From Monocercomonoides exilis PA203 (Eukaryota > Protista > Preaxostyla): a DNA stretch of 64,000 nucleotides. Made by a program: the position numbers and the translations under genes. Positions 16,898-62,400 of the stretch are shown one piece after another. The DNA lies in assembly GCA_001643675.2 (NCBI GenBank), contig LSRY02000015.1, positions 1,773,936-1,837,935 of the forward strand. Reading direction: 5' to 3'. How positions within the stretch are numbered: the stretch's first letter is position 1; each line of letters opens with the position of its first letter. Below the pieces are notes generated by a model. The model was given only the letters and a program-made list of their open reading frames with translations, had not been told where the DNA came from and ran no database searches.

Positions 16898-18917
16898 GTG
16901 TGATTTATAAACCTGGACTTTAATATAATTTTGGTTTGAAAAAAAAATTTTTTTTTTATTCTAACAATCATGTTTTAATTCTTAAAATTGAAATTATAAA
17001 TAATATCCATAATCAACAAGTTCTCTCTATTCAATTTTTCCTGGAATTTTTCAGCTTAGGTTCATCATCCAAACCATCATCATTCATTATATTATATTTG
17101 CGATATCTCCTTTTTTGGGCTTTTCAGTTGCGAGAAGAATTCTGCTTCATTTTCATGATTATTATCTTGTCTTATCTTATTTTCAATTATTTTTTCTTCT
17201 CTTCTCCATTCTTCAAAGAATTGTTGTTTGGTTGTGTTTTTTACAGAAAAATCAAGTCTGCGTGTTCTCTTTTTTAGTGTCACCGAATGTCTCTTTGGTA
17301 TGCCAGATAAAATTGAATACCGCTCTTTTGAAAGCGCAAAGCTTTTCTTGAACAAAGAAAAGATAATTGCAGGAAGCAATGCCGTCTGATGGGCTTGTGG
17401 AAGAACGTTGGAGAGAAATGGAAGAATTCGGAGGCACAGAGTGCAGAGGGTTGATTCATTTCTTGAAAATAGAAAACACACCACGATAAAGAGGGCGTGC
17501 GATGTGTGAACTGTGAGGAATAAAAGTGACGATGTTATTATTGTCATCGGTCAATTTCTGCCAGACATCAAGCTGAGCCCGAGAAGAATGAGAATCCAAA
17601 AAATGAAGATATCTTTTATGGTTCTTCATTAAAATATCCCCTCTTTCGATGATTCCATTCAGTTTAACCTCCTATGCATATCTTTTGAAAATGCTTTCTG
17701 TCGTCCATCCTTCGTTGTTGTCCCAAACGTCCATCTACGCAGTCAACAGAACTCGCATCTCCTTTGGTAATTTGTGGCATGGACACAACACAACGCTTTT
17801 GAGAGAATAACCATTTGCAGCAGCTGAGACAACCAAAGTTGCATATGGCATGTTTGGAAGTGTTGTATGGAAACAGGCTGGCACTCCTGAAGTGTTAATA
17901 ACCAGAGTTTTGAAGGAATAAGATAGGCACAGTGAAGATTCATCAGGGTCAAGGATCAAAGAATATGAATAATAATGTGAATCATGAAGATTTTACAGAA
18001 GCTCGAAGAAAAGTGAAACAGCGTGTTCGTTGGATACTGAAAGACATTGGATATCCACATTTGTGTGCATGGATGCTTTGAGCTCTGAATACCTTTTTGT
18101 AAATAAATATGAATATGCTTATGATACACTGGCATTTTTATCAGCTTCATTCTCTGAACGCCTTTTTTGTAGGAAAGGACGGATTCAATCTGCAAAATAC
18201 TAATTATGAAAAACAAAATAAAAAAGTGAAGATGAAAACAGACAAATTCACTTGTTCTCTTGGTATTAAAACTTGTTCCTGATAAACTTTTAATTTTTAA
18301 TGACTCGGACAATAGGATTTTTATCATCTTCATTGTACAGTTATGACCCACCAGATTTTCCAACATCCCTTCCACTCTCAACTGCTGAAACTGCTCTGAA
18401 AACCGCAGAATGAGAGAATTCTTTAGAATTTATTGAGTCAATAATTCGAACAATGCCATCAACAACAATACATGACATGGACTTGAAACGATTTTCAAAA
18501 CTTCGATATTCAAATGTTATCATTTTTTCTCGAATAATCGACTGGCCATTTTCTTTTTTGTTAAGCACTGTGTTTATACCAAAAACAATTGAAAGAAATC
18601 TTTCAAAATTTCACAAAAATAGTTTTTTTTTCTAATGAAAATTAAAATGTTTTTATGGATTTAATACTCACTCAATTAACCCCGTTGTTATAGCCTTATC
18701 TCTTCAGGAGATGCACAAACCAGAGATGGAGGAGCAAACACTCCATCCACACCTCCATCAGAGATTAAATGTCGTGATTTTATTAAAATTTCTAACTTTT
18801 GACTTTTAGTTAAAAACCGAAAACAGTATCAAAAATCTGAAAAGTGGATAAAATCTATTTTCAATTACAAAAAAAAAATTCCAGTGTTTTCAAAAAGTTC
18901 GAAATAACAAATCACAC
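16898..18917 (-). mobile_element. Pogo-type (IS630-Tc1-mariner superfamily) DNA transposon, decayed full-length copy B (~2.02 kb)
   Basis: Imperfect TIRs ta|GTGTGATTTATAAACC... and ...GAAATAACAAATCACAC|ta with TA flanks. Minus-strand transposase fragments (FEYRSFENR..AVESGRDVGK; DESSL; ATLVVSAAANGYSLKSVVL; TVHTSH) align with the copy at 41.7 kb. Intron at 18190-18243. Several stops and frameshifts. Confidence 0.85.
18666..18817 (-). other. Conserved GC-rich hairpin element upstream of pogo transposase (copy B); candidate structured RNA or cis-element
   Basis: Reverse complement aligns with 41802-41957 and folds into the same three-helix stem (see findings). Confidence 0.55.
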
Positions 18918-28922: not shown

Positions 28923-31900
28923 AGAACAAACGATAACAACAACACCTCTTGTTATGGGAGTTGAGCCTGTATTAAGGGCTCAGTCGCTTCTTTGATCATG
29001 GATATTGAAAACACTGCAACAGGACTTGCATCGAGTCTGGGAAGTATTTTTTCAATCAGCAGATCAACAGGCTGCGTAGAACTTTCTCAGACCACCTCCT
29101 TAGGCAGTACATCACATCTGTAACAAGCTCTATCTGCATCAGGAGATACCTCTTTTGCTTCATCTATCTACGGAAAGGATAGTTTTGCAACATTATGCAT
29201 GGAATTATTTGGGTCAGAAACCTCAGAATTTATTTTTGATCTGAAAATCGACTCTCTTGATACAGCTGATTCATTTTTTTATGAATCCTTTTCCAACCCT
29301 CCATTCATCCCATCCAAATTCCACGAGTTATCAAGATCATCAAACTGGATGAAGGACGCTCTAAACTCTAGTGGCTGGAGAGTTGAACGCTACTTAATTC
29401 CAGCAGTGAAGGCACTTATTCAAACACACGCAGATGCGCCTGAGAAACAGGAAAGATTATCCGATGCGATGATGCTTGTGATTTCGGGTCTCCAAGAAGC
29501 AAGGCACTCAAGGATCCAAGCAGAATACGGATTTACCGCAGCTAAAGCGCTTCGAGTGGAAACAGAGGACACAATTGTCTCAGGTGAAAAATTGTCCAAG
29601 ATAAAACCATTTCGCGAGGCAAGGAGAGCTCGATCGCAACCATCACAGCATCAACTCCACAATAGAAGAAGATTTTTTTCGTCTTCCTGCCCGAAGCATC
29701 GGGCCTGCCCAGTTCCGAACGAGAATATCAGCCAGACAACAGCAACAAACAGTGAAATGGTTCAGAAGCCGGGGAATGTTCTATATTTAATAAGAAACAG
29801 GACTCAAATATTTGCAAAGGAATGGAGGAGCATTGGAGTGAAGAACACAACAACGTTTGGCGTTAACTCAGTTTGGAAAGGAAAATCTGAGAAAGAAAAG
29901 TTAATGAAGGAGGTTTGTTTGCGAAGAGGCTTTATTGGCACAAGAAAGGAAGAAGAAGAGTGTGCCAAATGGAAATCGGAGAGTTTGTCCAACAACATTT
30001 TATGCGAAATCGAAGAAGGAAATGATAAATGTTTAAACACTCTGTTCTTTATAAAGAAAAAGAACGGTTAATATCAACAAATTCTCGATTGTCGCCACTT
30101 GAACAATACAAAAATGAACATTCACTTCAAATCAGAAGACCACAAGACACTGGAGAAGCTCCTCCGCAAGGACGATTATGCAGTTTCAATAGATCTCGCA
30201 CAAGCGCACTTTCTTGTTTCCGTACACAAAGACTTCACTCCCTTCCTTGCTTTCGGATTCAGAAAGAGGATATTCGTATTCAAAGGAAACCACTTTGGTT
30301 GTAAAGACGCTCCACGAATATTATCAAAGCTGATGAGGAAGATTATGCAGGAGGTTCGGAAAAGATGGAAGGAAAGATGTTTGAATTATCTTGACGATGT
30401 TCTCCTTTGCACAAGAACACAAAGCCTTGAAGGAAGCTTCAAGAGCAATTGTTTGAAGGCTCAACAACATACAACTCGATTTCAACAAAGAGAAAAGCAA
30501 GTTAACTCTCAGAAACACCTTCTCCTTCCTTGGAAGGACATGAAGACTCGAATTATGAAGGTTGCATTGGAGACAAAGCGCACGTACTCGTTGCAGAAGA
30601 AGATAAAACGGTGGATGAATTTGGAATCGAAGGAAACATCAATCAAGACAAAAGACTTCGCATCACTCGTTGGAGAAATCAGCGCAACTCGATTAGTCTA
30701 CGCAGACGCCTCTCCACACATGAACAGATTATGCAAGGAACTCGACAATGCAGTCAGGAAAACCGGTTGGACTGGTGCGATGAATCTGAATTATTCAATC
30801 ATGGAACAGCTGCAATATTGGAGGACGAGACTGAGAGAGAAGGAGGAAAGGCAGTGGGTGTCATTTGCAACTCCAGACGTGACGTTGATAACAGATGCTG
30901 CACACCGTGCATGTGGTGAAACACTTTGAATAGGCAGCTCTTTGTACCACTTCCACCAAGCTTTCAATCGAGCATTCTTCAATCAGCCATCCAATTTCAA
31001 GGAGATGTTGGCTGTGCTTTTGGCACTCAAACATTTCCGCAATCTCAAAGCCAAATACAATGCCCAAAGGATTCTTCTGAGATCAGACAACACCGCTGTT
31101 GAATACGACACCAATCTCTGGACAGCGTGAAAGAATCTTCTGTCTCTCACGAGGAAGATCAGACAATGGACAACAGAATGGAACATTCAGCTGAGAGCAA
31201 TTCACCTCCCAGGAGCAAAGAACTTGACAGCGGATGCCCTCTCAAGACTTCAACGCGCAGGAGACCACGAGATTACAGACGAAGCATTAAGAGAGTTGGA
31301 ACATCGGTTAGATCTTACAATCGAACAGGACGCCTTCGCAAGCGCGACAAACAGGAAAACAATGACTTGGTTTGGACCAGGAAGCCCGATATTGGATGAC
31401 GGGCGTCAAGCGGATTGAAGCACAGAGATCACTCTGGTTCACACGTCAGTTCCTCTGATTCTTCCGTGCCTCAAGAAGATTCAGGAAGAACACGCGAGAG
31501 CAGTGATTCTGCTTCCAGCTTGGAGGAACCAGATTAGGACACAGTTGCTTATGGAGATGAAAACACATTGTGTGAAATGGAACAATTCGAACAAGGTTTT
31601 GAAGGCAGAACTAGGTCTAAAGAAGACAGGAGCCTCACTTTCTCCGTGGGTGTTTTTGGCTGCAAGACTCAACTTGTAGCGCAAAAAGGAGAGCAGTGGT
31701 AGAACAGCTGCCTTCGAAGATGCAATTTTTTCGAAGCAATAATCACCGAAGCTTAAAATAGTGTCTCGACTTCAACTTGGACAGCCTGCACATTCGGATT
31801 CGTGCATTTTGCCTAGGCATGGACGGAGGATAATTGTGGAGAATTTCCACAAGACTTCTTGGAATGGTGTCGAAGGTGTACCGTGCTTTTTGTCAAACAA

Positions 31901-38433: not shown

Positions 38434-41400
38434 TAATTTGAGACAATTGATTTGTGTTCAAGATTTAAAAATTGCATCGTGTTAAAACTCTTTGGAAACA
38501 AAAATTTCAATTTATATTAATTATGGTGATTGCGTTTTCACCATGAAATATCAGATAATTTCTGTTTTTTGTTTTGATTTATGGTTAGATATATCTATTG
38601 CGAACTGTATTGCTTTTTTTTTTAAAAAAAAAAAAAGCGTTTGCAATTTTCTTTTAAATTTGGAACTAAAATTGTTGGAATGAGTTTTTTACTATTTTTG
38701 TATCTTTTTTTAAGGAATTAAAAATAATTGAGATTTTTAAAACGATGAAAATTTCTCTTTCATATGTATGGATTAATAAATTATTTTTCAAACAAAACGA
38801 AAAAGAGAAATTTCTCAAGAAATGAAAGATTTCTTTTCAAAAGTTAACTCATTTCGACTTTTTCCAATTAAAAAGAAATTCTGCAAAATTGAAAAGATCA
38901 AAAAACTTAGAGATTTCAAAGAATATGCGAGAATCAAATTAATAATAATTGATTTTTGATCTTGAATTAGGATGAGAAAGTGAGGGTTTTTTATTATCAC
39001 ATTCCTTATTTTAATGGTTTTTTCTGGTCTTTGATAAAGTGGCTATGCCGAAATTGAATGTTTTTACATTTTGACCATATTTCAATAATTGTTCAGGAGA
39101 ATAAAAATAAATCAATAAATAAATATTAAAAGTTCATATCATTGAATTTTTTCTTGAGAACACTATTTAACATCCATCTTTATATTGTCAAAAGCAGAAA
39201 TTAATTTCTGTTTAAAAATATAGTAAAATATTAATTAACCAGGCAAAAAATACGGACTTTCAAGCTTTTTTTGCACAAAGCACATAAAAATTGCTTCAGT
39301 CATGACTTTATTTCGCTTTCTCAGATTTTGAAAATAAATTTGATTTTCATATCCTTAAACAGGCATCGTTGAAATTTATACACAAAGTTTTCCAACATTT
39401 CACGAATGTCAAAAAATGGAAATATTTTTGTAGCGTTTTTTGATATGAAAAAGTCAAAAAAAAGTTCATAATTTTTCAACGAAAATGCCTGATGAAAAAT
39501 ATATTGAACCATTTATTTTGAGATTGTTTGCATTTATCAATTGTTTGATGGATTTGTCGCGAAATGTGATTAAGATATGATTTATTTCGGAAAATTGATT
39601 GTTTTTATTTCATTTGCGTCCTTTCAAAAAGAGAAACTGACATTGTATCTTTTGAATTAGTCAAACTATAATTTTTAAATTTGATTTCAATTTCAAGCTT
39701 TTTTCATAAATCAGAGAAAGTCAAATAAGGTTAAAATAAAACAACTCTTATAAATAACCCCCTTTTTTTCAAAATTCGAATTGCTCGATGAATTTCAAAA
39801 ATAAAATTTCAATTATAAAGACAATTATTTATCGGTGTATAACGCATCTGGTTATATGCAAGATATCGAGATTTTGTTGAATTTTTGAAACAAAAAATTA
39901 TTTTTGTTTTTGACATTATGGCTTCTGATGAATTTTTCTATTTTCAGAAAACGATACAATTCAACTTTTATTCATAAAACTTATTTTTATTTTTCCCCTC
40001 AGTAATAAACAATACTGATTATTTTTTTATTTTCGGCAATTTGTTCGTTTCGATAGAATGGAAAACAATTGCTTTTGAAAAATCATTGACGATGAGATAA
40101 CTTCAAAAACTCTTTAAACAAAACTCATAATCATCCAAGTGAATTCCACCAATGCATAAATTAAAATAATGGCTACAAAAAATCGCTTCCAAGTTGTAAT
40201 TTTTCATGATTCAATATTCATTTAAAGAAAATATAAATATTCACTTTTATTGATCTTTCAAGTTAATAATTTCATTGAAATGCGAATACATTCAAAATCA
40301 GATTCAATCACATCGGATATTATCAGCATCGGATATAATCGCATATTTTTTGTGTACAAACATTTTTTTCCTATTTTCCATTCGTTTTCCGTCTCATAAA
40401 ATAGCAGGGCTTTATATATGTAATCTCATTTAATAACATAATGTGTCGTTTTTTCATTGATAAATCCATTTTTTTATATTAATAATTTCTGAAATTAAAT
40501 TTTTAATGAATTTGATTAATTGAATAATTGATATTAATGATAGATATTAGAAAAATGATCGAATAATGAGAACGGTCAAAATCGAATATTGTTTCATCGG
40601 ATTATACATAATTTTTTGTGATAATATCCGATTATGATAATATCCGATTTCGCTTCATACGGATGAAAACAAAAAATAATTTATAAATAACAAATTAACA
40701 TTTTTTTTTTTAATTTTTCTGTTATTATTCATGATTTCGAATTTTTCAACTTGCGAAAGCAATTTTTCTCATTGGTATTTGCGACAGAATTTCTGTATTA
40801 ATAAAATCGATGATGTGTTCCAGATTATTTCTTCAATCTTATGAATATAATTCTTGCGTTTCAGTTCAGAAAAAATTATCGAAATATAAAAATTCGAAAA
40901 AATCTTTGAAAGAACTGTGCGGAACAAAATACATAAAGCAAAAAATTTCATCTCATTAAAAATAAATAATTTAAACTATAATTTATGATTTTTTCAAATT
41001 CATTAAAAATTTAATTTCAGAAATTATTAATATAAAAAAATGGATTTATCAATGAAAAAACGACACATTATGTTATTAAATGAGATTACATATATAAAGC
41101 CCTGCTATTTTATGAGACGGAAAACGAATGGAAAATAGGAAAAAAATGTTTGTACACAAAAAATATGCGATTATATCCGATGCTGATAATATCCGATGTG
41201 ATTGAATCTGATTTTGAATGTATTCGCATTTCAATGAAATTATTAACTTGAAAGATCAATAAAAGTGAATATTTATATTTTCTTTAAATGAATATTGAAT
41301 CATGAAAAATTACAACTTGGAAGCGATTTTTTGTAGCCATTATTTTAATTTATGCATTGGTGGAATTCACTTGGATGATTATGAGTTTTGTTTAAAGAGT

Positions 41401-41695
41401 TTTTGAAGTTATCTCATCGTCAATGATTTTTCAAAAGCAATTGTTTTCCATTCTATCGAAACGAACAAATTGCCGAAAATAAAAAAATAATCAGTATTGT
41501 TTATTACTGAGGGGAAAAATAAAAATAAGTTTTATGAATAAAAGTTGAATTGTATCGTTTTCTGAAAATAGAAAAATTCATCAGAAGCCATAATGTCAAA
41601 AACAAAAATAATTTTTTGTTTCAAAAATTCAACAAAATCTCGATATCTTGCATATAACCAGATGCGTTATACACCGATAAATAATTGTCTTTATA

Positions 41696-43747
41696 GGGTG
41701 ATTTATTAACTTGAATATTTTTTTAACCCGAACATTTTTTTTATTAATTAGTTTAATCAACCCACTTTTCATATTTTATTAATTGTTTTGAGTATATAAG
41801 GAAAAGTCAGAAGTCAGAAATTAAGATCAAATTACTATACCTAATCTCTGATGTGGGGGGGGAGGGGGGGGGAGAGATGGGGGGGTTAGCTCCTCCATCT
41901 CTGATTAGTGCCTCCCACGAGGAGATTAGGCAATAGCAACGGGGCTGATTAAGTTAGAATTTGATTGAAATTTTTTTTTTGATTTTTTTTCATTTCAAAA
42001 AAATATTTTTTTAGAAAATAAAAAAAATGATCATGACCAAAAATATTTTAAAATGAGTGTTGTGGAAAACAAAAAACAACAAGGATTAAAGAAAATATGA
42101 AGTTTAATGAGATCCTTCCAATATCGACATATTGAAAGAAGATTACAGCGTGTTGCAACGATTATTTCTAATGGAGAAGCTCGGGTTGCTGATGCTGCGA
42201 ACATGAAGGAATTTACTCGCTCGGCAATTGATAGAGCAGTTGCAGCTGTGGAAAAAGGAAGAAAAGCAGGACAGAAAGGAAGACCAGAATTATTCAATTA
42301 GGAAGAAAAGGAAACTATATTTGGTATGTTAAAAATCGAATGTGAAAGTGGGACAAGTTACGATGCTGCACAAATGAGGAAATTAGTTTGTCACAATATT
42401 TAATTTGTTGAATTTATTTATTTTTTTACATATTCAGATGAACACTGTTATAAATGATAGGAAAAAAGACGATTTTGATGAAGAAGAGGAAGAAGTGAAC
42501 ATTTCTAAAGCATATCCTTATCAATACACAAAAAGGAACCCCGATCTCAAAGCTTCTCATCCTCGAAATGTCGACATCCAAAGGCTCTCCGCATCAAATC
42601 AACAAACTCTTCTTCCATTTTTCACTCTTCTACAAAACCTTCATGATCAACATCATTATACCAACTCTCTCATCTTTAATATTGATGAATCTTTTCTCCG
42701 ACTCTCTGATTCTTTCTCTTCTCTTGTTTTCCATCCTTCCGACATGCCTGCCGGTTTCTCCAAAACACCAATGAACATGTCGAATGCAACTCTTGTCGTT
42801 GCAGCCGCAGCTGATGGCTACTCCCTAAAAAGCGTCGTTCTGTGGCCTTGTCGGAAACTGCCAGATGAACTGCGCCTTGTTCTGAGTTCGCAGTTAGATG
42901 TTTAGGGTGAAAATGAAGGCTGGATGACTGAAGCGCTATTCCTCAAATATGCTGAAGAAGTGTTGCTTCCATGAATCGCGCAAAGAAGAGAAACTTTGAA
43001 GAAGAATGATGAACGTTGCCTTCTTTTTCTTGATTCTCATTCTTCGAGAGCGCAGCCTGACTTGTGGAAGAAGTTCGCCGATTCTTCAATAGATGTGGTC
43101 ACCTTCGTACCCCACACCACTCACATCGCACAGCCGTTGGATCGTGGAGTGTGTGCTGTTTTTAAAAAGACAATAAATGCTTATTATGAAGCACATTCTT
43201 CTTCTTCTGTTGTTTTGCGACGAGAAGCGCTGGCTGATGTGCTTCCACAAGCTTTACAAACGTCTTTGCTGCCTTCTACAATCAAATCATCATTTGCGAA
43301 GAGCGGAGTACTGTCACATCAGTGGCACGAAGTGTTAGCGAAGCTGCCAAAAGAACCTTCTGTAACTCCGAAGAAAAGAACAAAAAGGTTTGATTATTTT
43401 GGAAAATTAATTACCGATGAATAATTCTTAATAGAATGGAAAAAAGAAAAGGATGAAAGAAAAGAGTCAAAAAATGAAGAAAAAGATAATGAAGAAATTG
43501 AAAAGGCTTTGTTTGAAGATGAAAAACCGAAAAAAAGAAAATTCAACCCATTGAAAATTTAAAATGATGATTTTTCTGATGATGAAAAAAAAGAAAGAAA
43601 TACTCGAAAAATTGTCAAACGAGAGCTTGTTGATTATATTTATTATTAATACTTTTTAAAGAACGAAATCAATACACAATAACAAAAATAAATTTGATTA
43701 TTTTTTATTCGTGTTTTCAAAAAAATATTCGGGTTAATAAATCACCC
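41696..43747 (+). mobile_element. Pogo-type DD35D DNA transposon, full-length defective copy A (2052 bp), TA target-site duplication
   Basis: TIRs ta|GGGTGATTTATTAACTTGAATATTTTTT and AAAAAATATTCGGGTTAATAAATCACCC|ta. Transposase at ~42054-43650 with IFNIDES, LFLDSHSSR and VPHTTHIAQPLD (35 residues between the 2nd and 3rd D). Intron 42386-42437. Several in-frame stops. The empty site is visible in the opposite palindrome arm. Confidence 0.93.
41802..41957 (+). other. Conserved GC-rich hairpin element upstream of pogo transposase (copy A); candidate structured RNA or cis-element
   Basis: 41840-41930 folds as CCTAATCTC/GAGATTAGG, GTGGGGGG/CCTCCCAC and AGAGATGGGGGGG/CTCCTCCATCTCT. Homologous to 18666-18817(-). 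Confidence 0.55.
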
Positions 43748-44068
43748 TAATTAAAATTTTATTTTTGAAATTCATCGAGCAATTCGAATTTTCATAAAAT
43801 AGTTTGGGTTTTAAAAAAGTGTCAGTTTAGTTGAAACCCAATGAAACGTTTTTTAATGATGAATATGAAATTAATTCCGAAATCTTATTCATTTCATAAC
43901 TGACAATACATCAATAACTTTTTCAAACATTAAATATAAAATTCATCTCTTTGAATTAATTGAAATTGAACATGTGAAACAAAGAAATTTCACATAATTT
44001 GTTTTGGATGGATAAAAATTCAAGAATATTGATGGATCAAAACCCAAACTTAGTGTTTATTTCAATAT

Positions 44069-47000
44069 ATGGATAACGAAAAGGAAAAGAAAAAAATGAA
44101 AATAATCAACAAATTCAAATCGTTAAATGTTATTTTGATGATTTTCATTGCAGATTCTTTGAATACACATTCTATTTTGTCAACATTCAATGAAGAGAAA
44201 AATGAATTAAAAAGAATTGATGAGTTGGTAAACATCAACATTGGGAGCAGGAAAAGCACAATCGAAGGATCAATCATTTTCTCGAATTCAACATGTGAAT
44301 TGGAAAACATCAGAATTGTGCAGAAAGGAGATGGAAGTGCTGTCTGCTGTGTTTTCTCATCGGATGTTGAAGGCACCAAGATTGAGATTGTTGACAGAAG
44401 CAGCCACAATGAACATCCGTTCCTTGTTGAGGATTCTAGCCTTCACTTGATGAATGCCACACTGATTGTTGAAAACAAAGAGATCAGTTCGCCTTCTCTT
44501 GTTGGCTCTCCGAAAGAGCATGAGAACAGATATTCCAAAAGAACATCATCAACTGGAATGCTGATTGTTGAGCAGTCACTGTTTTCATCAATCTCAGTTG
44601 CATCCCCGCCATTTCTTTCTTCGCCATCACTTGCTGAGGTTAATGTGGGAAATTCCATATTCTGCAACATTTCTTCTTGCAAGCATCACATCCTTCCCAA
44701 TTCCTATAGATTTCACAGATTGCAAACACGAGCTGAAAGTTGCTCTTTTGTGTCTGTGCATGATGCATTTGATGGAGGTGTATTTGAGTCAGTCAATGCC
44801 CCAGGTGCTTCATTCCAATCGTTCAACAACTCATTCATGAACTGTGCCAAAACATCATTTTCTGGGAACAGCAACATGGAGAGAAAGACTTTTGAAGGTG
44901 GATCACACTCATTCTCAAACTGTGAATGGCATAATGTTTCATCAGCGTTGACTCCAGAAAGCTCAGAGGATTGGGACTTATCAGTTTGTGGAGGTGCCAT
45001 TGGCATTCATGGAAATTCAGAGACAGTTGTTGTTATTGACAGTTGCATCTTCGACAATTGTATTTGCTTAAGATATGGTGGAGCAGTAATGATATATCCT
45101 GGTTACAATGTTTCTTTGCAGAATTCAAAAGGATTTAACTGTTCCGGAGGATCTGGATCATTTGGAATGCTTACTGGAATTGCAAATTTAAAAATGGGGA
45201 ATTCATGTTCAAATAATTGTTCAAATAGCGATTCTGGAGCTTTTCGTTTGCAATCTTTTAATGTAATCCATTCTGATAATGAATTAACTGTTCCTGTTGT
45301 TTGTAATTGTTCATTCACTCTTTCAGATTCAAATCTGACAACATGCGCTTTCATTTGTTTACACAATATGTTTCAGCCATATTCCATATCTGAAAGTTTA
45401 TTTTTAAATGGTTTCACAAAAATATCAGGAGGAGCAATATCTATCTATTGGAGGGATGCATATGGAACGATTTCAGAAAAGCCATGGTTGTATTTCTGTT
45501 TCTTCCACAACAACACAGCAGGAGATGGAAATGGAGATGATGTGTCAATACGAGACTCATTTTCATATATGCCAGAGACCACGGTGCTGAGTGTGTCGTC
45601 ATTCACAACGAAGACAAGTGGAAGCAGTGTGTGGCACTCTCGATTTGGAACAAAGAACGAGTGGCTGAGTGTGGGGATTCTGAGGAGATATGTGGATGCG
45701 GAGGGAAGAGAAGAGGTTGGATGTGGGATATACGAGTGGGATGGGTGCAAGACAGTGGAATATGCAGTGGATCAGGCAAGCTCAGTTGGGGAGCAGCGGC
45801 TGCAGCTGGCGGAGTGCACATTCAGGATCGCAAGAACGGTGGAGGTGGGGAGAAAGACGATTGTGATGAATGGGTTTGGGGACAGCGGGACGATAGTGAA
45901 ATCGGAGCTGATGGGAGGGTCATCGGCAATGGTGAGGATCGGGGATGGGGCATTGAGTGCCGCCTCGATGAAGATACTGCACACATCCAGGGCATCACCA
46001 TCACCGCGGCTGTTTGAGATGACTTCAGTGTCAGGCACACTCTCGCTGTGTTGCATCACAATCAGCTCGCAGGATGTGGGAACAGCAGACTTGGTGGTGA
46101 GCACATCACCCTTTTTGATATATCAGTCTCAGATGCGAATGGAAAGCACAAGGGTTGAGAACATGGTGCTGTCTGTGGTGGTGTTCAGCGAGAAAGAGCC
46201 ATCTGGAGCTGGAGCATCGAGCTTGGCGAATGTGACGCTGGAGAACATCACGCGCACAGATGGAGATGGGGCTGCTTTCTCTGTCAGTGTGGGCGGAGGA
46301 AGCGTGATTGGTGTGGAAAACACAACAATGAAGAACTGTGTGTGCACATGTGGAAACGGAGGAGGGGTGTTTGTTTCGCTGGGGTCTGGAGGCAATGTGA
46401 GGATAGGAGGCAATTTGGAAGTGGGGTTTGATGGGTGCTGTGTCCAGTTGGAAGAAGCAGCGAAAAGGAAAGGAGGAGGGGTGTATCTTCTGTGCTCAGG
46501 GAGTGATTGGGAGTTCAGTGTGAAAAAGTGCACATTCAGGGAGTGCAAGGCCTGGAAAGGGAGGAACATGTTTGTGGCAGCACCAGACTTGTCGACAGCT
46601 GTGAACAGCAGTTCAATCGGATTCAATGCGGAGACCGGGGTAAATAGAGCAGACTTTGATGAGCTGAGTGGGATGGAGAGCAGCAATGCAGTGCTGATTG
46701 TCCCACTGGTTCTGTTTCTGCGGGAGTTCCAGCCACCCGCATATGTGGGTGGGAAGGCAGTGGGGCAGGACTTCAGGCTGTGTGGATTTGCAGACTACAT
46801 GTGCAAAACGATCGGAAGCGCTGGGACATATCGGTTCCCGAACTCGAAGCGGATATTGAGGCTGGCAGAGACATTTGTGTTTGATGAGGAGACGAAGCTG
46901 GACAAAGGACCGTATGAGGTGGATGCGAGCAGCAAAAGTGAGGGAGTGAAAGTGGAGGCAGCAGGACCGAAAGTGCAGGATGCACTGGTGATGAGCAGCG

Positions 47001-50000
47001 TCACAGCCACATTCACGAACATCAGCTTTGAGCTGGGGGCTTCGATCGGCAGCCGCTCGACATTTGTATATTCATCGGCAGGCGATGTGAAATTCATCGA
47101 CTGTGCGATTGATGGGGCCAGGGGTGGGAGTGGGGTGGAATACGGGTTTGTGAGTGTGAGTGGAGGGAGCGTGCAGATGCTGAGGGTGAGCTGTGGAGGC
47201 GAGAGAGAAGTGACGTTTGGGAGTTATGTGGTGCTTGTGAATGGAAGCGGGGCCTGCACCGTCGACCAGATGACGATGAACCAGATGAGAGTTAGCGAGG
47301 GCAGAAGTGGAAGCCAAGGGATCATTGAACTGGCAACAAGCAGCCCAACCACAATCCACAACAGCACTATTGCGAATGTTGTGCTGGGGTCGGGAGGGCT
47401 GATCCATTTTGCAGAGGGATCATCGCTGAAGATGAAAAACACATCGTTCATGAGCATTGGCAGGAGCGGTGGAGGCGGGGCGTGCCTGGAGCTGGATGAA
47501 TTGTGTGGGAGGAAGCAGAGCGTGTGGATAGAGAACTGCTCATTCAGCGCCTGCAAAGTGGATGGAGATGGAAGCTGTGGAGGAGGAGTATATGCTATGC
47601 TGGATGTCTCGAGTGAGCTTCATGTGTCGTCGACACGGTTTGAAGGATGTCAGGCACCCTCAGAAGGCGGGACAAACGGGAAAGGAGGGGGTTTGCTGTT
47701 GAATGTGCTGGATGCAGGTGTGCTGTTTGAGCTGTCAGCAACCCTTGCATTTGAGGCAAACCAAGCGGAATACGGAGCTGACCTGTTTGTGGCATCTCCT
47801 GACCTGAAAGCAAGCGTCACAAAAGAACACATCCTGTTTGCAATTCCGTTGACAGGAAGCACAAGAGCAGCAATGGGGGTGGATTCGAAGTGGAGCGATC
47901 TGACGATTCCGCTGATGTATTATCTGTGTGATGATCCGCCATGCATGCACATGGGGAACGACGGGCATGATGTGGTTGTGTGTGGGCATGAGCAGTTCCG
48001 ATGTAAGTGTGTGGACTATGCTGTGAGGAGGGTGATCGGGAAACAGCATGCTCTGGCGTTTGGCGACTCGTATCTGTTTGGAGAGAGTGTGTCGCTGAGT
48101 GCAAGTGAGGGATACGACTTCTGTGGGACAGCTTCGAAGACACGAATGGAAATGGTTGGGAATGAATCGAGCGGGACATGCATGATTGGGATTGACTCAT
48201 ATGTGAGGTTTTATCAGTTCTTGTGTGTCCTTCCAGCAGCACTGCCACTGGTACAATCAAGCATATTTTTGGTGAGCGGAGACAGAAGCGAGCTTTGGAT
48301 CGAAGACTGCTCAGCTGTGTGTGGCTCATCTGCTGGCAGATGCAAGTGTTCGTTTGTGAGTCAGAGCAGTGGGCGTCTTTCGATCACTGGGTTCAGCATC
48401 GAGTCTGTTGAGTTTGAGGGGATTTCGTTCATCAGCTCGAACGGCAATGGGGCGAGCATTCTTGACTCGATAAACATGAGCAATGTTCGGATCACAGATG
48501 CAGACGGGCTTGTTGTGTACACATCAGAGGGTTCGTTCACAGCTGTGAACATGAGTGTGAAGCACTGCAGCAATTCTGGGGGAGGGGTTGTGTGGGATCG
48601 GGAAGGTGGGATGCTGGAAATGAAGAACAGCACATTTGAGGGGATCATGCAGGCAGATGGGAATGGGAGTGTGGTGAATGGGGTTATTGGGAGCGGAAAG
48701 GAGATGAGAATGAGTGATGTTTGGATAGAGGGTTGTGGAACAGCAAAGGGGTGTGGCGGAGGAATGAATGTGGTTGTGGAAGGAACAGGGAAGGTGAGGA
48801 TTGGGGGTGGGGATGATGTGACATATGTTGGGGGATGCAGGGCAGGTGGAGAAGGGCGTGTTGGAGGCTATGGAGGGGGGCTTTTGTTGCGATGTGAGGA
48901 AGGGGGAAGAGATTTTGGGATTATTGGGGTGACATTTGGGGTGGATGGCTCTGCAAACGATGCTACGCATGGCGGGAGCAATGTGATGGTGGAGTGCAAG
49001 AATCTGCCGGAAGTGGTGAATGAGGTTTCATTTAGTTTCTCATTTGTGAAAGATGTTGAGGACAATCCGAATTTGATCGAGCTGATGGGGATTGAGAACG
49101 GAAGGGTTTCAGAGGTGATCCCCATTGTGCCTTTCTTTCGGGAAAAGCCGAGTGTGGGGTATGTGCATGGGGAAAATGGCGGGATGGACTATCCGAGCTG
49201 CGGGTATTCCGACTTTCCATGCTCTTCAGTGCCGTATGCAGGAGCAGCGGTGTTTGGGGCAAGATCAGCAGCGGCATTGCGGCTGATGAGCACTTTCACG
49301 ATTCACAAAGAAATGATACTGTATATGCAGCCAATGGTCATTGACGGAGAAGTGGAAATGGAACGTATTGTGATGAGAGAAGAAAGCGATGGAGAAGAAG
49401 GAGAAGTTGGAGGAGGAGCGAAAGAATGCTTGGTTGAGACGAAGGAGAAAATCACATTTCGCTCTCTGATGTTTTGTGCTTGGTCGTTTGAGGGATCAGC
49501 CCGAACATGTCTGTTCATGTGCAGCGATGGTGTTCTGAGATTTGAAGGATGCTCATTTTGTACAGAGGCAGGAGCATCGAATATGTGTGTGGAATGTTTG
49601 AAGGGGAAAGGAGGTAAAATGGAGCTTGTGAAGTGCAGATTTGAAGAAGTGACAATGAGAGGATGTGGGCTAATTGTTACTGATGGGAGCGAAGTGGAAG
49701 TGGAACTTGATGAGGCGACGATACGAAACACGGGGAGAGAAGATGAAGGGAGTGTGTTGGAAATGAGAAGAGGAAAGATTGTGAGCATTAGAAACACGAC
49801 AATAAAGGAGACGAATTTTGGGAATGGGAACGAGATTGACATTGGAGAGGATGTGGGGTTGGAGATGAGGAACAGCACATTGTGCGAGGTGAGAAGATAT
49901 GAAGGGAATGGAGGAGTGATGAGTGGGAAAGTGGGGAGTATGAGAGCGTGGGAGATTGAGGACTGTGTGTTTGAGAGGTGTGAGTGCGAAGCAGATTACA

Positions 50001-53000
50001 CATTTGGAGGAGGGATAATGGTGAGTGTGGGGGATGGGGGGAAGTTCGTGTTTGAGCACAACAAAGTGGACAGATGTGGGGTGCCGTCGGACAGCGGAAA
50101 GGGGGGAGGGGTGCATGTGGTGTTTGAAACAACAAAGATAGAGTATTCGATGAAGATGAACGAGTTCACAAACAATGTTGCAGAAAAGGGGGAGGATGTG
50201 TTTTTGGTGTGCGACTCGCCTTGGCTGGTGATTCTGCCAGCACTGTGGTATGGATCTGCAACGAACGAAACAGCACAGAAGAAGATGTGGGTGGCGGAGC
50301 TGACAGAGGCGGGAAAGGAAGACTCGATCATTAATTACCTGTTCCCATCGCTGAGTTCATACATGTTTGTGAGTGGCACAGGGAATGCCGGGGAGAACTG
50401 CGGGCTGAGAGAAAACCCGTGTGTGTCTGTGGATGTGGGGTTTGAGCGGCTGAAGGATGTTCATGTGATCATGGAGTTGGATGGAGCAGCAAGTGTGGAG
50501 AGAGTGATCAACAGGGAGGGAAAGTCGCTGACAATACAAGGGAATGGGGAGAAACAGGAAGTGAGTGTGGAAGAGAGCGGAAAGTTTGAGCTTGTGCAAG
50601 GGGAAGCACTGACATACATGACATTCTCATTTCTTCTGTTTGTGCTCCCCGATGCCTATTCTGGAGCATCTGAAGAACAGTCAGTTGTGGAAGTCGGTGT
50701 TGGGCAGTGCTCATTTGCCGATTGCGCATTTGTGTGCACAGAAAGTGGGACAAACAGCTGTGGGAGATGGATTGTGATTGGGAAAGGTGGGGTTGTTCGG
50801 ATGGACAGGACAGAAATCAGTGGGGTTGAATTTGTTGGAGGAGGGGTTGCTGCATGCAGGGGCTGTTGTGTGACTTTTGAGAACAGCAGCATTAACAGTG
50901 CGGACACAGACGGAAAAGGGATGATTGACGGAAGAGCGGGATCTGATGTTGTGTTGAAAAACACAACCGCAAGGGGATGCAGGACGAATGCAGGTGCACT
51001 GATCACATCGAAAGAGGGATCGCGCCTGAGGATATGTGAGCGCTGTGTTTTTGAAGAGATCAGGACACAGAGCAGCAGGGGTGGATGCGTGGAGAGCGAA
51101 ATGGAGGGAGAGGATGCATTTTCAGTGGAGCTGTCATGGATGACGAAGTGTGAGACGGAGAAAGAAAGCGGGAGAGGAGGAGGGATATTCATGGGATTGG
51201 GGGATGGATGCGCTGGAAACTATCTGCTGTCTGGAATGAAGTTCAAAGGCAACGAGGCACATGAAGGGAATGATTTATTTATCATGTGTCAAGTGCTGAA
51301 TGAGAGTGTGAGAGCTGCTCGACTGGCCTTTGAGTATGACGGGGATGATGGGGTTGGAGTTGATATGAAGGGGGTGGACAGAGAGTATTTTGGAGAGTGT
51401 GTGGATCTTCGGCTGTTTGTTGTTGAAAGGAAGGCCGGGGAAGTGTATGTGTCTGCAGAAGGGTATGATACAGCAGGGTGCGGAAGCGAGGCATATGCGT
51501 GCAGCACAATTTGGAGCGGGATAGGGCATGTTGACAGAAGCGGGATTGCGGGGGAGGGGAGATTGTGGGTGAAGGACAAAGGAGAAATCATGGATTTCTT
51601 CACATTTTCTAGTGCACTGAGAATTGAAGGGCTGGGGAAGGAAGGAGATGAAATACCGCAAAAGGTTATCCGATTTGCAGAGACTATCAGAGGAAGTGTC
51701 GCTATGTCTGTTCTGGCATCGAAGGCATCGCTGATGCTCCAATCATTGAGGATGGAAACGCCATCGGCGTTTGAGCCGATGGTGAAATCAATTGTGACAT
51801 CGAGTGGGATTCTTCAGCTGAATAACTGCACATTTGCCATGGAGTCTGGGGCTGTTGTTGAGTATTCGCTAATTGTCACAACAAATGGGACATGCTCGAT
51901 GAGAGGGTGCACTCTGCAAGACTGCATGTTTGGTGTGACTCCATTTTTGATATCATCTTCTGTGCTGCTTGAAAGCAACAACTTCTCATTCATCAAGAAC
52001 ACAGCAGGTGCTGAAGGAGGTGTTGCAAAAGTGGAGCTGAGTGAAGAAGATGAGCTTGTAACCAGATCAACAAATGCATCATTCTGTTTAATCAATGCAG
52101 AGAGAGGGAAAGGAGGGTTCCTGTATGTGAATAGCCAAAAGTGCACGAGCGAGAATGGACTTGTCTTCGAAAGTGATGTTGTGTTTGGAGGTAATGTGGC
52201 CTGGATGGGGAAGAATGCATTTATCTTGGCAGCAGATCTGAACAGCACAGTGAGAGGAGAAACATACAGGTTTGATTATTCGACAATGAAAGATGACAGA
52301 ACGCTGTTTGTGGGGAGCGATGGAGTCCACACAAATATCGATCTGTTTGTGTTTCTTGTTTCGTACACTTCGAGTGAGGTTTATGTGTCCAACGAAGGGT
52401 TTGATGTTGCTCGGTGCGGGAGCAAGAAAGAGCCATGCAGAACACTGTGGAAAGGCATCAGCCAGGTGAAGGAAGGCGAGGGAGCGAAGGCGTTGCGAAT
52501 AGCAGGGTCGACGCCGATACGAGACGCCTTCGACGGAACCAGATATGAGATCGAAAATGCAGAAGCTGGGGGAGAGGCAAGCGGCAAGGCGGTTTTGCGC
52601 TTGGAGAAGGCATATGAAGGGCCACTGGAGTATTTCATCTGCAACAGTGTATCGCTCTCATTGAGGGAGATCAAGGTGCTGATGACAGCAGGGTTTGAGA
52701 GCACAGCAAGGGCAGTTATTTCTAACAAGGGTGGGGAGCTATGGATTAAAGAATGCGCGTTTCACTCAGAAGCACAGTTGAACAACGGGTTTGAGTGCGT
52801 GTTTGTTGATGTCAATGCCGGTGTGCTTGGTGTGAATGGCTTGTCGATGGACTCGAGTTGTGTGGGCAAAAGTGTTTTGCAGGTTGAGGAGGTGGGTGCC
52901 GAGTGCAACTTATCGAACATGCACATTTCATCGCTAAACGAAACAGGAGGATGTGTGATATCTGTGGGGGAATGTTGTACCCAGCACAGCACAAACGATG

Positions 53001-56000
53001 GGAATGCAGCGAGCAGCATGGACATGGAGAACTGTTCGTTTGAGGGGATGAAAAGAAGCGACAATGAAGCGAGTGTGCTTGTGTCGAAAAGCGAGAAGGG
53101 GATCACAGTGAGGATAAGAGACTGCTTGCTTGTGGATGGCAAAGCAGAGACAAGCGACAAGGGAGGGGGGATGCTGTTTGGACTGCACAAAGCAGGAAGG
53201 CTTAGCATGGTGAAGACAACGATGAGTCGGTGCAGCTGCGAGAGCAACAGCGGGAAAGGCGGAGGGGTGTATCTGGAGAGCAAAGAAAGAGGGGCGCTGA
53301 GCTTTGTGTTTGAGAAGGTGAGCTTCAGCGCAAACACAGCAGGGGTGGGGAACGACATATTTGTCGAGTGCTACAACATCTCGTGCCAGATCAACGAGAC
53401 TCAGTTCCGCTTCGATCTTCGGGAAGAGAGCTATGCTCGGCTGAATGCGATATATGGGTCGGATGCCACAGAACACACAGGAAGCACGAATCTGATAGAC
53501 TTCATCACAATCCACCAGAGCGACACAATCATCGTGTCAGGCAATAGTGGAGTGGATGAACGGCAGTGTGGCACACGCTCTCTGCCGTGCCAGTCCATAG
53601 ATTATGGACTGGCGCATCTGACTGCGGACTTCATCAGTCAGATGTTTGTTGATGGGGAGAGTGCGATCAAGGGGGAAGTGGAACTGGACGAGATGAGCCT
53701 GAGCTCAAGAAGCCGCGATCTGTGCAATGTTGAAGTGGAGTCGAGGATCGAATGCACAAGGGCGAGTGTGATATCGACATCCAACACAGTGACTATTTCG
53801 AGAGTGAGGTTTGTATTTGATATGGAATTTGCATCTTCTCACGTTGCACTGGTTGAGCCAGACAGCGGATTGGTGGAAATGGTCAACTGCTCGTTCAGCT
53901 CGAAGCACACAGAACCTGCTGAAGCTCGTTTGCAAGCACAAATACCGTTTCACATCATTCAAATTGCCTCGGGGAGATGTGTTCTAGATGGATGCTGCGT
54001 GGCAGACGTTGCGCTTTCTGTGGCTGCAATATGCATTGCATCACCTATCCAATTTGTTGTTTCTTCTTGCGTGTTCTGCGACTTGGCAACCAGCGATCCG
54101 CTCATTGATGTCACAGGAAGTGGAGAAATTTCTGCGAATCATCTGGAATTGGCGAATGTCACCGTCTCAAAAAGAGGACTTTCTTTGCTGTCGTGCTCAG
54201 GCGTGAGAAGAAAAATGAAACTTAACAATTGCTCGATCAAAAATTCAGCACAAGACAATTCAAGAGGGATGCTCATCACATTGGGCAACTGCTCTGACGC
54301 AGTGATGGACAGTTGCCTCTTGGATGGGAATTCAAGCGAATGCGATACAAAAGAATCACAAAGAAGGTTATCCAACAAAGTGTTTAATGAAGCGGAAAAT
54401 GAAACATGCAGATGGAATGGTTCAATTGTTGATTTTTCTAGTAGTTCCGTGATGATGAAAGACACAACAATCTGCAACTCCTCAAAGGGAGGGATAACTG
54501 TGAGTGGAGGAAGTGTTGGAATTGAAATGGGGTTATTTGAGAATAACAACCCTTCAATAGCAAATTACCCATCATTGAGAAGAAATATCATCTGTTCAGA
54601 TTCAGGAACATTTAATGTGATGAGTCTGAAAGGAGGAGATGGATGGAAGGATAATACCTCACTTTGGATGTTGAATGATGGGTGCAGCTTTGAAGGGATT
54701 ATTTCTGAAAGGGCATCACCATTTTTCATTCCTGTGTTGGAGAGTGTTGAAGCAAATGAGAAAGGAGCAGAAATGGAGGTTGTGTTCAAAGGGAAGCTTC
54801 TTCTCCCATGCAACTTGTCATTCATGATTGTGAAGCAGATTGGAGAAGAAAAGCAGATTGAGAAATATGGGTTTAATGAGAGTGGATATGTGTCAGAGAC
54901 AGAGGTTAAAGGGAGGGTGAAACGGGAAACAATTAGCGAGGCAGGAGATGAGGCAGAGGTGAGTGTGTGCATTCTGTTTGGGGACGGAAATAATCCATCG
55001 TCCACTGATTCTTTCATTCTGAAGAACAGAAGTGAGCCTAAAGCTAATGGGGATGAAAGGATTGTTGAAGGAGGAAAAGAAGGGAAATCGTATTGGTTGT
55101 TGATTGTTTGCATTGCGATTGTTGTAATACTGTTTGTGGTCATTATTGTTCTGGCTATTCGGTGGAGGAAGGAAAAGAATGAAGCAGATGATCTGAGAGA
55201 GATTGTGAATGATAATATCAAAAAGGATCCGAAGGCATTTGAGATGGTGACGATGGAGATGTCACCTGAGGAGCAGTGGAGGAGAGCAGAGAGGGATGCA
55301 GAGAAAAAGAATGAGGAAAGGATGAAGAAGAGAATATATGACACGAATCTGCAACATTCAGAGTCATCTGAACATCTTCTATCTGAGAGTGGCTCAACAG
55401 AATACATTTTGGGAAGAGATTCAGATAAGATCCCTCAATGGATGTTGGAGAAAGATGAAGAAGAAGAGATAAGGAAGAGAACGCCATCACCTTCCATTTC
55501 ATCCACTTCAACCACATCAACAACTGATTCAGATTCCACGTTTGTTCGAGGAGAGGATTTGTGTCCGACAACCTCATCGATGTCAAACTTGGTGGATGCA
55601 ATGGCCTGTTCATCACCTCATGAGAAGTTGATAGTGGATTTGAGGGATTCCCTGTTTATGTTGTTGCACGGGAAAAATGAGAAGAAGGAGATGGCAATTG
55701 ACACTCTTCAAGAGAGAGAAATGGCAGCTGCTCAAATCCTGTTCTGGGTGGCAAATGGAGCGCTCCATTCATTTGATGAAATGGAAAACCCTCTTCAGTC
55801 GCTGGGCAGTCTGAGTCCGCACATTGTGCTGTTCTCCGAGCACATGGTCATCTGCATCACCATGCACTCAGATTGTTCATCAGGCTCAGACACTTCGTCC
55901 TCCATATCTTCAGCAACAGTTGTGACATCAGCAAGTGATGTTGAAAGTGATTCTCTGCCCTCATCTGCCTTTGAGGATGACGAAGACAACAGAAAGGAGT

Positions 56001-59400: not shown

Positions 59401-62400
59401 AATTTGATTGAAAACATGTGATTTCAAAAGCAATCATCCATATATTCGCACAATCCCAAATTCAAAAATCAATATGAAATATCAAATAATAAAAACTTTT
59501 TAAGTTATCTGTGCAAAATAAGAAGGAGTCAATAAGTGACCCTTTACCAAAACAAATTGTTGATAAATTGTGGAAGATATGTCTGAAATGTTTATATATG
59601 TGCTAAAAGCTGTCATATTCTTTTCTGAAATTAACAGACAAAAATAAATAAATAATGTCAATAAAGGAAATGCTCCATAAAAAGTGAGCCCTATTATGAG
59701 CACAAATATTTCCATTTGGAATTATTTTTTATGTGGTTAATAAATAATGAATTAATAATTTTTTTAATCGCAAGAACAAAATATTCTAATCTCCATTTAA
59801 TAAACGTTAATTGCTATTTTTGATTATTGTCAAATATTTCGAATTTGTTTGAAAGTTTTTTGATTTTTTTATTTTTTATTTTTTTTTTTATTTTGATTTT
59901 GAATAACTTTTGGGCATTTTTGAAAAACGAAAAATCTGCAATTGTCAAGAGAGAAAATAGGAGTTTAAGCAGAAACTGCATGCAATTATTGAGATTTCAT
60001 TTTTCAGACTAAACTATGGCAATGACAAAAAGCAGATATATGAGAGAATAATTATTTACAAAAGAAAAAAAAAGTCTTATTGAAATGGTGTTATTATAGC
60101 TTTAAATTCGAAATAACAAGCTTCAATCAAATCTTTTGAGAAACAAAAAAGATTATTATAATAAGTGCATATACACAACATACCAGAATATTGAAATGAT
60201 GTTTGAAAGAAGCAATTAGACAATATTAGCGAGAAAAAAGTAATTCAGTGTTTAAAATAATTGCACACATTAGCTGCTGCTTTGATACGAATGCCAGAAA
60301 ACACCAGCGAGAAGTTTTGGAAAATGCCTTTTCACACACGCAAAATTTCCTTCAACAAAAGTTTTTCTGTAATTTGCTCAACAAAACAAAAAAGTGCGTT
60401 TGAATAATAATTAAATAAATCAAAATTAAATGGTGCCTTTTGCAAATGCCTTTGTCCAACGCTTTATGTTTGGATAAATCCAACGAAATTAAGAATAGTG
60501 CACCATTTAATTTTTTGTTCATCTCCAATCATTCTTTATTCTGAGAAATATGCCAGCGTTTATCTTTCTTTTTCCTTTTCAAGTGATTCATCTGTGGCTG
60601 CCCCCAACTCTCCATTCTGCTTCATCCACTGCTCCCTCTTGTTTGTGTTTCGCTTTCAGATCCAGAACCCAGCTTCACAATAACCCCGCTCCGCTCAATG
60701 TATTCTGACCCGCATTCCTCCGACCCTTCGCAATATGCAATTGCATCCGACACTGTCGCCATCGTGTACCCCGATGGCAAGCGCCCAACCAGATATCGCT
60801 TCACCTGCATCAACGATGCTCTCCTTTCTGGATTTCCATCCAACCCGTTTTCCACCGCTTCGCACATCTCTGATCCACGTATGCTCTCCATTCCTGGCCT
60901 CTCCCCATTCTTTATCTTCTCTCCAGCCGTCTCAGCCTCATACTCCCCAAACGGAATCTGCAGTGTCAAACACTCCCACAGCATCATCCCTATCGAGAAC
61001 ACCACCGTCTTCTTCGTCGCATGTTTCTTTGTTCCATTCAGCAGCTCTGGTGCCTTCCACCTCAAACACTCCTTTCTGTTGTCTTCGTCATCCTCAAAGG
61101 CAGATGAGGGCAGAGAATCACTTTCAACATCACTTGCTGATGTCACAACTGTTGCTGAAGATATGGAGGACGAAGTGTCTGAGCCTGATGAACAATCTGA
61201 GTGCATGGTGATGCAGATGACCATGTGCTCGGAGAACAGCACAATGTGCGGACTCAGACTGCCCAGCGACTGAAGAGGTTTTCCATTTCATCAAATGAAT
61301 GGAGCGCTCCATTTGCCACCCAGAACAGGATTTGAGCAGCTGCCATTTCTCTCTTGAAGAGTGTCAATTGCCATCTCCTTCTTCTCATTTTTCCCGTGCA
61401 ACAACATAAACAGGGAATCCCTCAAATCCACTATCAACTTCTCATGAGGTGATGAACAGGCCATTGCATCCACCAAGTTTGACATCGATGAGGTTGTCGG
61501 ACACAAATCCTCCTCGAACAAACGTGGAATCTGAATCAGTTGTTGATGTGGTTGAAGTGGATGAAATGGAAGGTGATGGCGTTCTCTTCCTTATCTCTTC
61601 TTCTTCATCTTTCTCCAACATCCATTGAGGGATCTTATCTGAATCTCTTCCCAAAATGTATTCTGTTGAGCCACTCTCAGATAGAAGATGTTCAGATGAC
61701 TCTGAATGTTGCAGATTCGTGTCATATATTCTCTTCTTCATCCTTTCCTCATTCTTTTCTCTGCATCCCTCTCTGCTCTCCTCCACTCCTCAGGTGACAT
61801 CTCCATCGTCACCATCTCAAATGCCTTCGGATCCTTTTTGATATTATCATTCACAATCTCTCTCAGATCATCTGCTTCATTCTTTTCCTTCCTCCACCGA
61901 ATAGCCAGAACAATAATGACCACAAACAGTATTACAACAATCGCAATGCAAACAATCAACAACCAATACGATTTCCTTCTTTTCCTCCTTCAACAATCCT
62001 TTCATCCCCATTAGCTTTAGGCTCACTTCTGTTCTTCAGAATGAAAGAATCAGTGACGATGGATTATTTCCGTCCCCAAACAGAATGCACACACTCACCT
62101 CTGCCTCATCTCCTGCCTCGCTAATTGTTTCCCGTTTCACCTCCCTTTAACCTCTGTCTCTGACATATCCACTCTCATTAAACCCATATTTCTCAATCTG
62201 CTTTTCTTCTCCAATCTGCTTCACAATCATGAATGACAAGTTGCAAGGGAGAAGCAGCTTCCTTTGAACACAACCTCCATTTCTTCTCCTTTCTCATTTG
62301 CTTCGACACTCTCTAACACTGGAATGAAAAATGGTGATGCCCTTTCAGAAATAATCCCTTCAAAGCTGCACCCATCATTCAACATCCAAAGTGAGGTATT

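Follow-up and report, generated by a model that had tools for sequence, protein, structure and literature searches.

A conserved block with a predicted hairpin in the left end of pogo-like transposons of Monocercomonoides exilis, a candidate module for control of transposase expression

Eukaryotic DNA transposons are known to cap the expression of their own transposase mostly at the protein and DNA levels. Human Tigger elements, which belong to the pogo family, may have subterminal palindromes. IS200 is a bacterial element of another transposase class. The left end of IS200 combines a terminator that acts against impinging transcription with a stem in the 5' UTR that represses translation (PMC4513863). 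The pogo superfamily of IS630-Tc1-mariner transposons features type 1 terminal inverted repeats (TIRs) of at most 40 bp, a length of 1.2-5.2 kb, a DDE_1 domain and a DD29-59D triad (PMC7386202). Subterminal repeats bound by the transposase were described for Lemi1/Emigrant, pogo and Sleeping Beauty, those of Emigrant being reversed (PMC1636448). Searches of the openly accessible literature turned up no account of a structured RNA in the leaders of pogo or Tc1/mariner elements, nor of the leader of the present family, in agreement with the original prediction, which knew of no such element for pogo.

The window analysed here is a stretch of 64,000 nucleotides of the M. exilis PA203 genome (contig LSRY02000015.1). 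Two decayed pogo-like transposons of ~2 kb, named A and B, with a DD35D transposase and a TA target, each carry inside their left end a copy of the same block, in which the motifs and helices of the original prediction are present (Table 1). Sequence comparison identifies the block as a real and selected cis-module of this pogo-like family, undescribed in the literature searched. By analogy with IS200 it is likely that it limits transposase expression.

Table 1. Coordinates of the transposons, the conserved block and its parts (positions in the window)
Feature	Position	Strand	Evidence or remark
Element A, decayed pogo-like DD35D transposon, 2,052 bp	41696..43747	+	TIRs, TA flanks, DDE_1
TA target-site duplication of A	41694..41695, partner 43748-43749	.	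Empty-site comparison
Left TIR of A	41696..41725, right one 43718-43747	+	~30 bp
Direct repeat of the inner TIR half in A, outside the block	41726..41738	+	9/10 matches to TIR words
Conserved block in A	41802-41957	+	
Tandem AAGTYAGAA-type repeats	41802..41821	+	Third copy after the hairpin at 41951
Predicted long hairpin P1-P2-P3, bulge on 3' side	41840..41930	+	-54.7 kcal/mol, z -5.5
Internal loop, 5' half, UGAU	41849..41852	+	Opposite 41918-41921, UGAR in B and family majority
Variable purine-rich 5' arm	41853..41888	+	36 nt in A, 21 in B, 13-25 in other copies
Conserved 3' arm, best-kept stretch of the element	41889..41932	+	35/44 identity, depth peak
Predicted small hairpin P4 around CAACGG	41934..41947	+	One double and one single pair-keeping change
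Transposase exon 1 of A, ATG at 42053	42053..42385	+	Start matches N-terminus of P0004
Transposase GT-AG intron of A	42386..42437	+	P0002 joins across the intron
Transposase exon 2 of A, in-frame stops, DD35D triad; end approximate	42438..43640	+	
Element B, older, single-copy, decayed, sister subfamily	16898..18917	-	TIRs 19/30 identical, protein matches
Conserved block in B	18666..18817	-	Hairpin 18769-18694

The TIRs of element A agree at 27 of 30 positions, with TA flanking each end, and its protein is ~93% identical to P0002. An empty copy of the insertion site at 39814-39815 bears a single TA, which fixes the ends of A and its target duplication. The family transposase matches DDE_1 (PF03184) above the cut-off (E 2e-9 for element A) and 35 residues lie between the last two D of the triad, counted by hand. 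The inner TIR half repeated next to the left TIR of A is likely, by analogy, a putative subterminal transposase-binding repeat. Element B has TA on each side and best protein matches at 53-68% identity, and outside the 3' arm of its block it is covered by one contig per DNA sequencing run. The exon 1 proteins of A and B are identical at 37 of 111 positions, a figure lowered by a frameshift of B near the end of the compared stretch; the transposase N-termini had been judged by eye to share well under half of their residues, and they do. Among 32 transposase homologues, 30 are named M. exilis proteins (42-94% identity) and two are remote; with 30/32 matches from one species, the family is classed on sequence as lineage-specific. 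The helix-turn-helix (HTH) models CENP-B_N, HTH_Tnp_Tc5 and HTH_psq gave no match at E 0.1 in four of four full-length relatives, and HTH_29 matched exon 1 weakly (E 0.07).

A third, more distant pogo-like element, C (21323-23555, + strand), has TIRs and TA ends and ~40-50% protein identity to the family. Its leader has no block core (best alignment against shuffles 17/200), so the block is not common to the ~40%-identity clade member in the window. Around the intron of C there is a 101-bp inverted repeat (98%; 22029-22129 and 22154-22254), likely a fold-back duplication.

Other features surround these elements. A 702-bp exact inverted duplication (39814-40515 and 40994-41695) starts exactly at the left end of A, its second copy contains the empty TA site, and 52 bp on the far side of A match at 94% (39764-39815 and 43748-43799); it could reflect a rearrangement linked to transposition, later conversion, or assembly of two alleles. 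Element C begins 70 nt upstream of a tRNA gene (21168-21253, - strand) that ARAGORN assigns to Ser(AGA) and that by eye resembles a tRNA-Tyr(GUA) with a short intron. A DDE_Tnp_4 transposase fragment, presumably of PIF/Harbinger type, lies at 24633-25193 (- strand; E 6e-22). A reverse-transcriptase fragment (RVT_1, E 2e-13) follows an unclassified ORF of 290 amino acids at 29199-30929 (+ strand), possibly a decayed retroelement. Downstream of A, an ORF of 4,125 amino acids (44069-56446, + strand) has a C-terminus that looks kinase-like by eye; its 3' part recurs in inverted and nearly identical form, with identical ORF translations, at ~60600-64000 (- strand).

Across 141 aligned positions the block is identical between A and B at 108 (76.6%); fourfold sites reach only 22 of 59 (37%; Fisher p 2e-7) and other non-coding parts 166 of 290 (57%; p 8e-5). 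It is on par with first and second codon positions (337/466; p 0.33), third positions stand at 110/233, and the most conserved 45-nt window of the whole element falls inside it. Identity so far above fourfold and other non-coding sites indicates that the block is under selection, and because it is GC-balanced the figure is not inflated by AT-richness. The original prediction, which had staked itself on the block exceeding synonymous and other non-coding positions, is borne out on this point; its description of the leaders as otherwise unalignable has to be corrected, as the left ends align from the TIR inward at ~69% and the elements align end to end. Conservation is uneven along the block. 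Identity is ~80% in the 5' motifs (28/36), in the 3' arm (35/44) and in the tail (20/25), and drops to 13 of 21 positions in the 5' arm, which carries a 15-nt indel.

The conserved 15-mer has no other exact copy or complement within the 64-kb window. A covariance model trained on A and B detected no further copy there, the next match (16 bits) being the fold-back of C, and no block was found in the window outside a transposon context. Searched as an exact gapped pattern, the block had no match among contigs from metagenomes, viruses and prokaryote genomes; at the protein level, none of 167 candidates from metagenome contigs was confirmed.

Other copies were sampled from four DNA runs of one sample (X1 to X4) through contigs aligned to the A leader and to the B block. 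The A leader recruited 1,376, 33, 14 and 31 contigs with a depth peak on the 3' arm (41890-41919), and the B block 24, 4, 3 and 5, depth of reads or contigs not being a measure of copy number. One spanning contig matches the B block without differences in three of the four runs. Copies other than A and B align to B only over ~18670-18750, that is the 3' arm and tail, at 80% or more; they share the 3' arm and differ in the length and sequence of the 5' arm. The family majority has CT at 41917-18 (depth 1426/1555 in X1, 93.5/93.5 in X2, 35.8 and 32.6 of 35.8 in X3, 63.2/65.8 in X4) and T at 41931, which gives the loop UGAU/UGAR as in B and makes P1 one pair longer. The AC of A at 41917-18 and its long G-run are alleles that are rare in the family or private to A; none of the contig pieces listed, 32 out of 1,455, spans the G-run without differences, and its length is taken as assembled.

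The 5' arms of other copies were read by hand from loose ends of contigs, among those listed (24 loose-end rows out of 158, 40 variant rows out of 95); two loose-end consensus rows that were mixed (agreement 0.73 and 0.77) were excluded from the count. Five of the seven readable arms keep GATG opposite CATC and four have a clean GGGGAG opposite the majority CTCCCC, in a sample biased by recruitment through the 3' arm and in which the arms' own 3' arms are not visible. One of the seven breaks P2, another is without the P3 strand and two are incomplete or doubtful; the apical loop varies. Compared to the GGGGAG arms, P2 of B has two double changes and one wobble change. The 3' strand of P4 deviates in two loose ends.

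The predicted long hairpin lies 213-123 nt upstream of the ATG at 42053, with pair probabilities of 0.95-1.0 in A. The isolated hairpin of B reaches -30.2 kcal/mol (z -3.7), and folding is significant on each strand of each hairpin, the antisense strands nearly matching by z (-4.9 for A and -3.1 for B). In one common register of 30 pairs, the A/B alignment has seven pairs that vary with pairing kept, three by double and four by one-sided change, and seven pairs broken in one copy, some of the latter restored by the one-base shift of P2 in A relative to B. Partners slid by 1-3 columns gave 0-1 double changes as a control; a two-sequence shuffle control gave 61/500 and is without power at two sequences. 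RNAalifold recovers P1, P2 and P4 unaided, with four double changes. P4 has a pair probability below 0.1 in context.

The claim that both copies fold into the same stem holds for the isolated hairpins. In context, the helices of B keep a pair probability of 0.90-1.0 for 18693-18771 and 18675-18775 and fall to 0.05 within 18663-18790 or 18663-18819, where another register takes 0.8, the ensemble shifting once 15-50 nt of context are added. The 5' arm is a tandem GATG-purine unit able to pair in two registers, and B is predicted to be bistable. A further correction is that P2 of A lies one base off P2 of B. The non-Watson-Crick pairs are indeed G·U on the transposase-sense strand. Of 65 pairs counted in each copy's own register, 54 are Watson-Crick, 10 G·U, none A·C and one A·A; internal positions, which are free of helix-end choice, give a G·U to A·C ratio of 4:0 (p 0.06), and a G-rich strand favours G·U through its composition. 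Compensatory changes and G·U polarity are real, on the basis of two fully read copies and unphased fragments. Overall the predicted RNA fold of the sense strand has a fair signature and is unproven.

The explanation tentatively preferred here, as the simplest single one and by analogy with the left end of IS200, is that the block is an expression-control module which joins a promoter-like 3' half to a hairpin dampening translation of the transcripts that traverse it. At the DNA level, the 3' half and the flanking motifs would act as promoter elements or as sites for protein binding. The sequence would also be transcribed, whether in a long native leader or by read-through transcription that starts at a host promoter, and the 5' arm would then close the hairpin on any sense RNA crossing the region. 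Such a hairpin (predicted ~-30 to -55 kcal/mol) may stall scanning ribosomes and so lower transposase translation, while the UGAU/UGAR loop would form tandem G·A pairs that may bind a protein. With this dual role the 3' arm would keep its exact sequence and the 5' arm would only stay complementary. The main clue is this very asymmetry: the 3' arm is fixed in sequence, the 5' arm mostly preserves complementarity only, the wobbles lie on the sense strand and the G·A loop persists. Against the dual role count the broken pairs, the alternative fold of B and the place of the hairpin. A native leader that includes it would need 213 nt or more, when the mean 5' UTR of M. exilis is 62 nt and ~700 of 5,279 exceed 100 nt (PMC8767320); the authors of that study mention that annotated UTRs may be incomplete.

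A somewhat less probable explanation, close behind the dual module, is that the block acts only as DNA, as a promoter and/or an inverted array of binding sites for host factors or transposase, the hairpin being a by-product of nested sites. The arms would then be kept in step by template switching, much like paired TIRs change; template switching can give rise to multi-base compensation without selection on RNA (10.1101/2021.04.15.439925), and inverted DNA sites under a co-evolving binding protein would also change in concert, as TIRs do. The rare adjacent two-base change of A at 41917-18 exactly complements its own 5' arm, which is the pattern of a template switch, and the fold-back in C argues that palindrome-making mutation acts on these elements. 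However, template switching should perfect the stem, and the UGAU/UGAR loop and the 3' bulge persist. Against the DNA-only explanation also stand the mismatches, which run 10:0 toward G·U on the sense strand. The motifs outside the hairpin are as conserved as the arms, in favour of a DNA function, whereas the freedom of the 5' arm to change is unexpected for identical inverted binding sites.

Individual motifs give similarly divided evidence on a role as DNA alone. Each block has two copies of ATCTCTG in direct orientation, a repetition already pointed out. CAACGG at P4, 116 nt before the ATG, fits the Myb element [CT]AAC[GT]G (PMC9203502, PMC10887745), but this 6-mer has 68 matches in the window and some copies have CAAGGG instead. 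The AAGTYAGAA motif of B is complementary at 12 of 13 positions to the inner half of its left TIR, as in the reversed subterminal repeats of Emigrant, while the block of A matches its own TIR words at 8/10 at best, and a single such TIR-like match is not rare in AT-rich DNA. The position of the block suits a promoter given the short mean 5' UTR. A bacterial promoter scan found nothing above shuffles, its bacterial models not being applicable to this eukaryote. The DNA alternative of the original prediction, a promoter or binding array, thus comes out nearly as likely as its RNA reading. That reading is upheld in its compensatory changes and G·U polarity, and not in the ribozyme and small-RNA-precursor classes, which Rfam does not support.

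It is unlikely that the block is a discrete structured RNA or RNP, such as a two-fold switch, a small-RNA precursor, or a G·A/U·U loop that recruits an L7Ae-family protein or the transposase. Such a two-state RNA of a eukaryotic cut-and-paste transposon would, on this model, create a feedback on transposition at the RNA level. The tandem GATG-purine arm with its two registers and the predicted bistability of B speak for it, the loop has what is presumably the non-canonical pair set of box C/D and SECIS cores, and small-RNA hairpins have the same pattern, one arm constant and its partner free to vary. On the other side, the Rfam check proposed earlier found no family at gathering score for either block, tRNA being the only class at that level in the window; the sub-threshold matches (7 and 8 for the two leaders) have none in common, the best ones differing between A and B. 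The block is not found outside the transposon context in the window, and a kink-turn bulge, an apical AA and a three-way hammerhead junction are all missing. A closing helix P0 (41812-17 with 41945-50), which would compact the fold, was rejected: it overlaps P4, has a probability of 0.24 in A and is broken in several copies. The literature search found nothing on RNAi genes of M. exilis.

It is very improbable that the block is without function today, as the relic of an ancient fold-back or of an inserted nested palindrome, homogenised by gene conversion between subfamilies. Direct repeats at 41811 and 41951 flank the hairpin like an old target duplication, and fold-backs do arise in these elements. 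Yet identity forms a mosaic (~80%, then 62% with an indel, then 80%) rather than one uniform tract, it stays at the level of codon positions 1 and 2 while fourfold sites are at 37%, and the match of other copies to the 3' arm of B reaches 80% or more. The reading as an upstream ORF or a short coding exon is scarcely credible and was rejected. An open frame common to A and B does run through the block, their indel measures 15 nt, and third positions hold 17 of the 33 differences (p 0.023, best of three frames). Against this, p is ~0.07 after three-frame correction, the frame of B has no ATG, and the frame is broken by four of the five other arms readable in length (13, 20, 21, 22 and 25 nt) and by four more contigs with net gaps of 10, 11, 13 and 14.

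Just upstream of that shared frame, a T-tract that ends in TAG occupies aligned positions of the two leaders (41738-41754, + strand; 18880-18853, - strand). It resembles a splice acceptor and is a candidate for one, such sequences being common in AT-rich DNA.

With its many copies and several subfamilies, the family lends itself to a direct test of the dual expression-control module. Should the block be a DNA module instead, its copies amount to a small, ready-aligned chart of the promoter motifs of an oxymonad, a group for which a TATA-like motif is the only promoter motif found in the part of the literature consulted.

Among known nucleic acid structures, the G-quadruplex first considered for A is no feature of the family, since the four G-tracts are missing in B and other copies lack 10-14 nt of the A arm. 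Hammerhead ribozymes have a three-way junction and a CUGANGA/GAAA core; the block has a two-way junction, no such core and no Rfam match, and a self-cleaving ribozyme was rejected. Box C is RUGAUGA, box D is CUGA and the kink-turn has a 3-nt bulge, while a eukaryotic SECIS lies in the 3' UTR of a UGA-recoded ORF and has an apical unpaired AA. UGAU facing UGAR in the block is like the G·A cores of both, and M. exilis has selenocysteine machinery (PMC6759080). The block differs from them in its position and has no Rfam match; below its G·A pairs there is neither a bulge nor an internal loop, and an apical AA is missing. A box C/D snoRNA was rejected as P1 stacks directly on the loop without the 3-nt bulge; the C-like CUGAUG is short of the first and last letters of box C, CUGA is present in B and the majority and not in A, and the candidate guide is paired in cis. 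SECIS was rejected as the block is 5' of the ORF and the apical loops of A and B are without AA.

A DNA-level parallel is with the subterminal repeats of Lemi1/Emigrant, pogo and Sleeping Beauty: in A a repeat of the inner TIR half adjoins the TIR, and the upstream motif of B mirrors its inner TIR. Unlike subterminal repeats, the hairpin core and CAACGG tail are not TIR-like, lie 140-250 nt inside and have no right-end counterpart. With Tigger the block would have in common that a pogo-family element bears a palindrome close to one of its ends, but the literature search gave no match for subterminal palindromes of Tigger.

The carrier itself is pogo-like, as judged from its sequence: A and B have a length of ~2 kb, a TA target, ~30-bp TIRs, DDE_1 and a DD35D triad as in Passer and Fot/Fot-like elements (PMC7386202). 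They differ from the superfamily in being lineage-specific, in carrying the conserved block and possibly in the N-terminus, where four of four full-length relatives have no Pfam HTH match at E 0.1. As in the left end of IS200, inverted repeats lie between the element end and the start codon and are proposed to cap transposase expression and to shield it from impinging transcription. In IS200 the stem masks a Shine-Dalgarno sequence and is bound by an antisense RNA (PMC4513863). Here the predicted hairpin is 123-213 nt upstream of a eukaryotic ATG; the analogy is in how the two would work and not one of membership. If the preferred reading is true, the leader hairpin of these transposons is a eukaryotic parallel to the left end of IS200.
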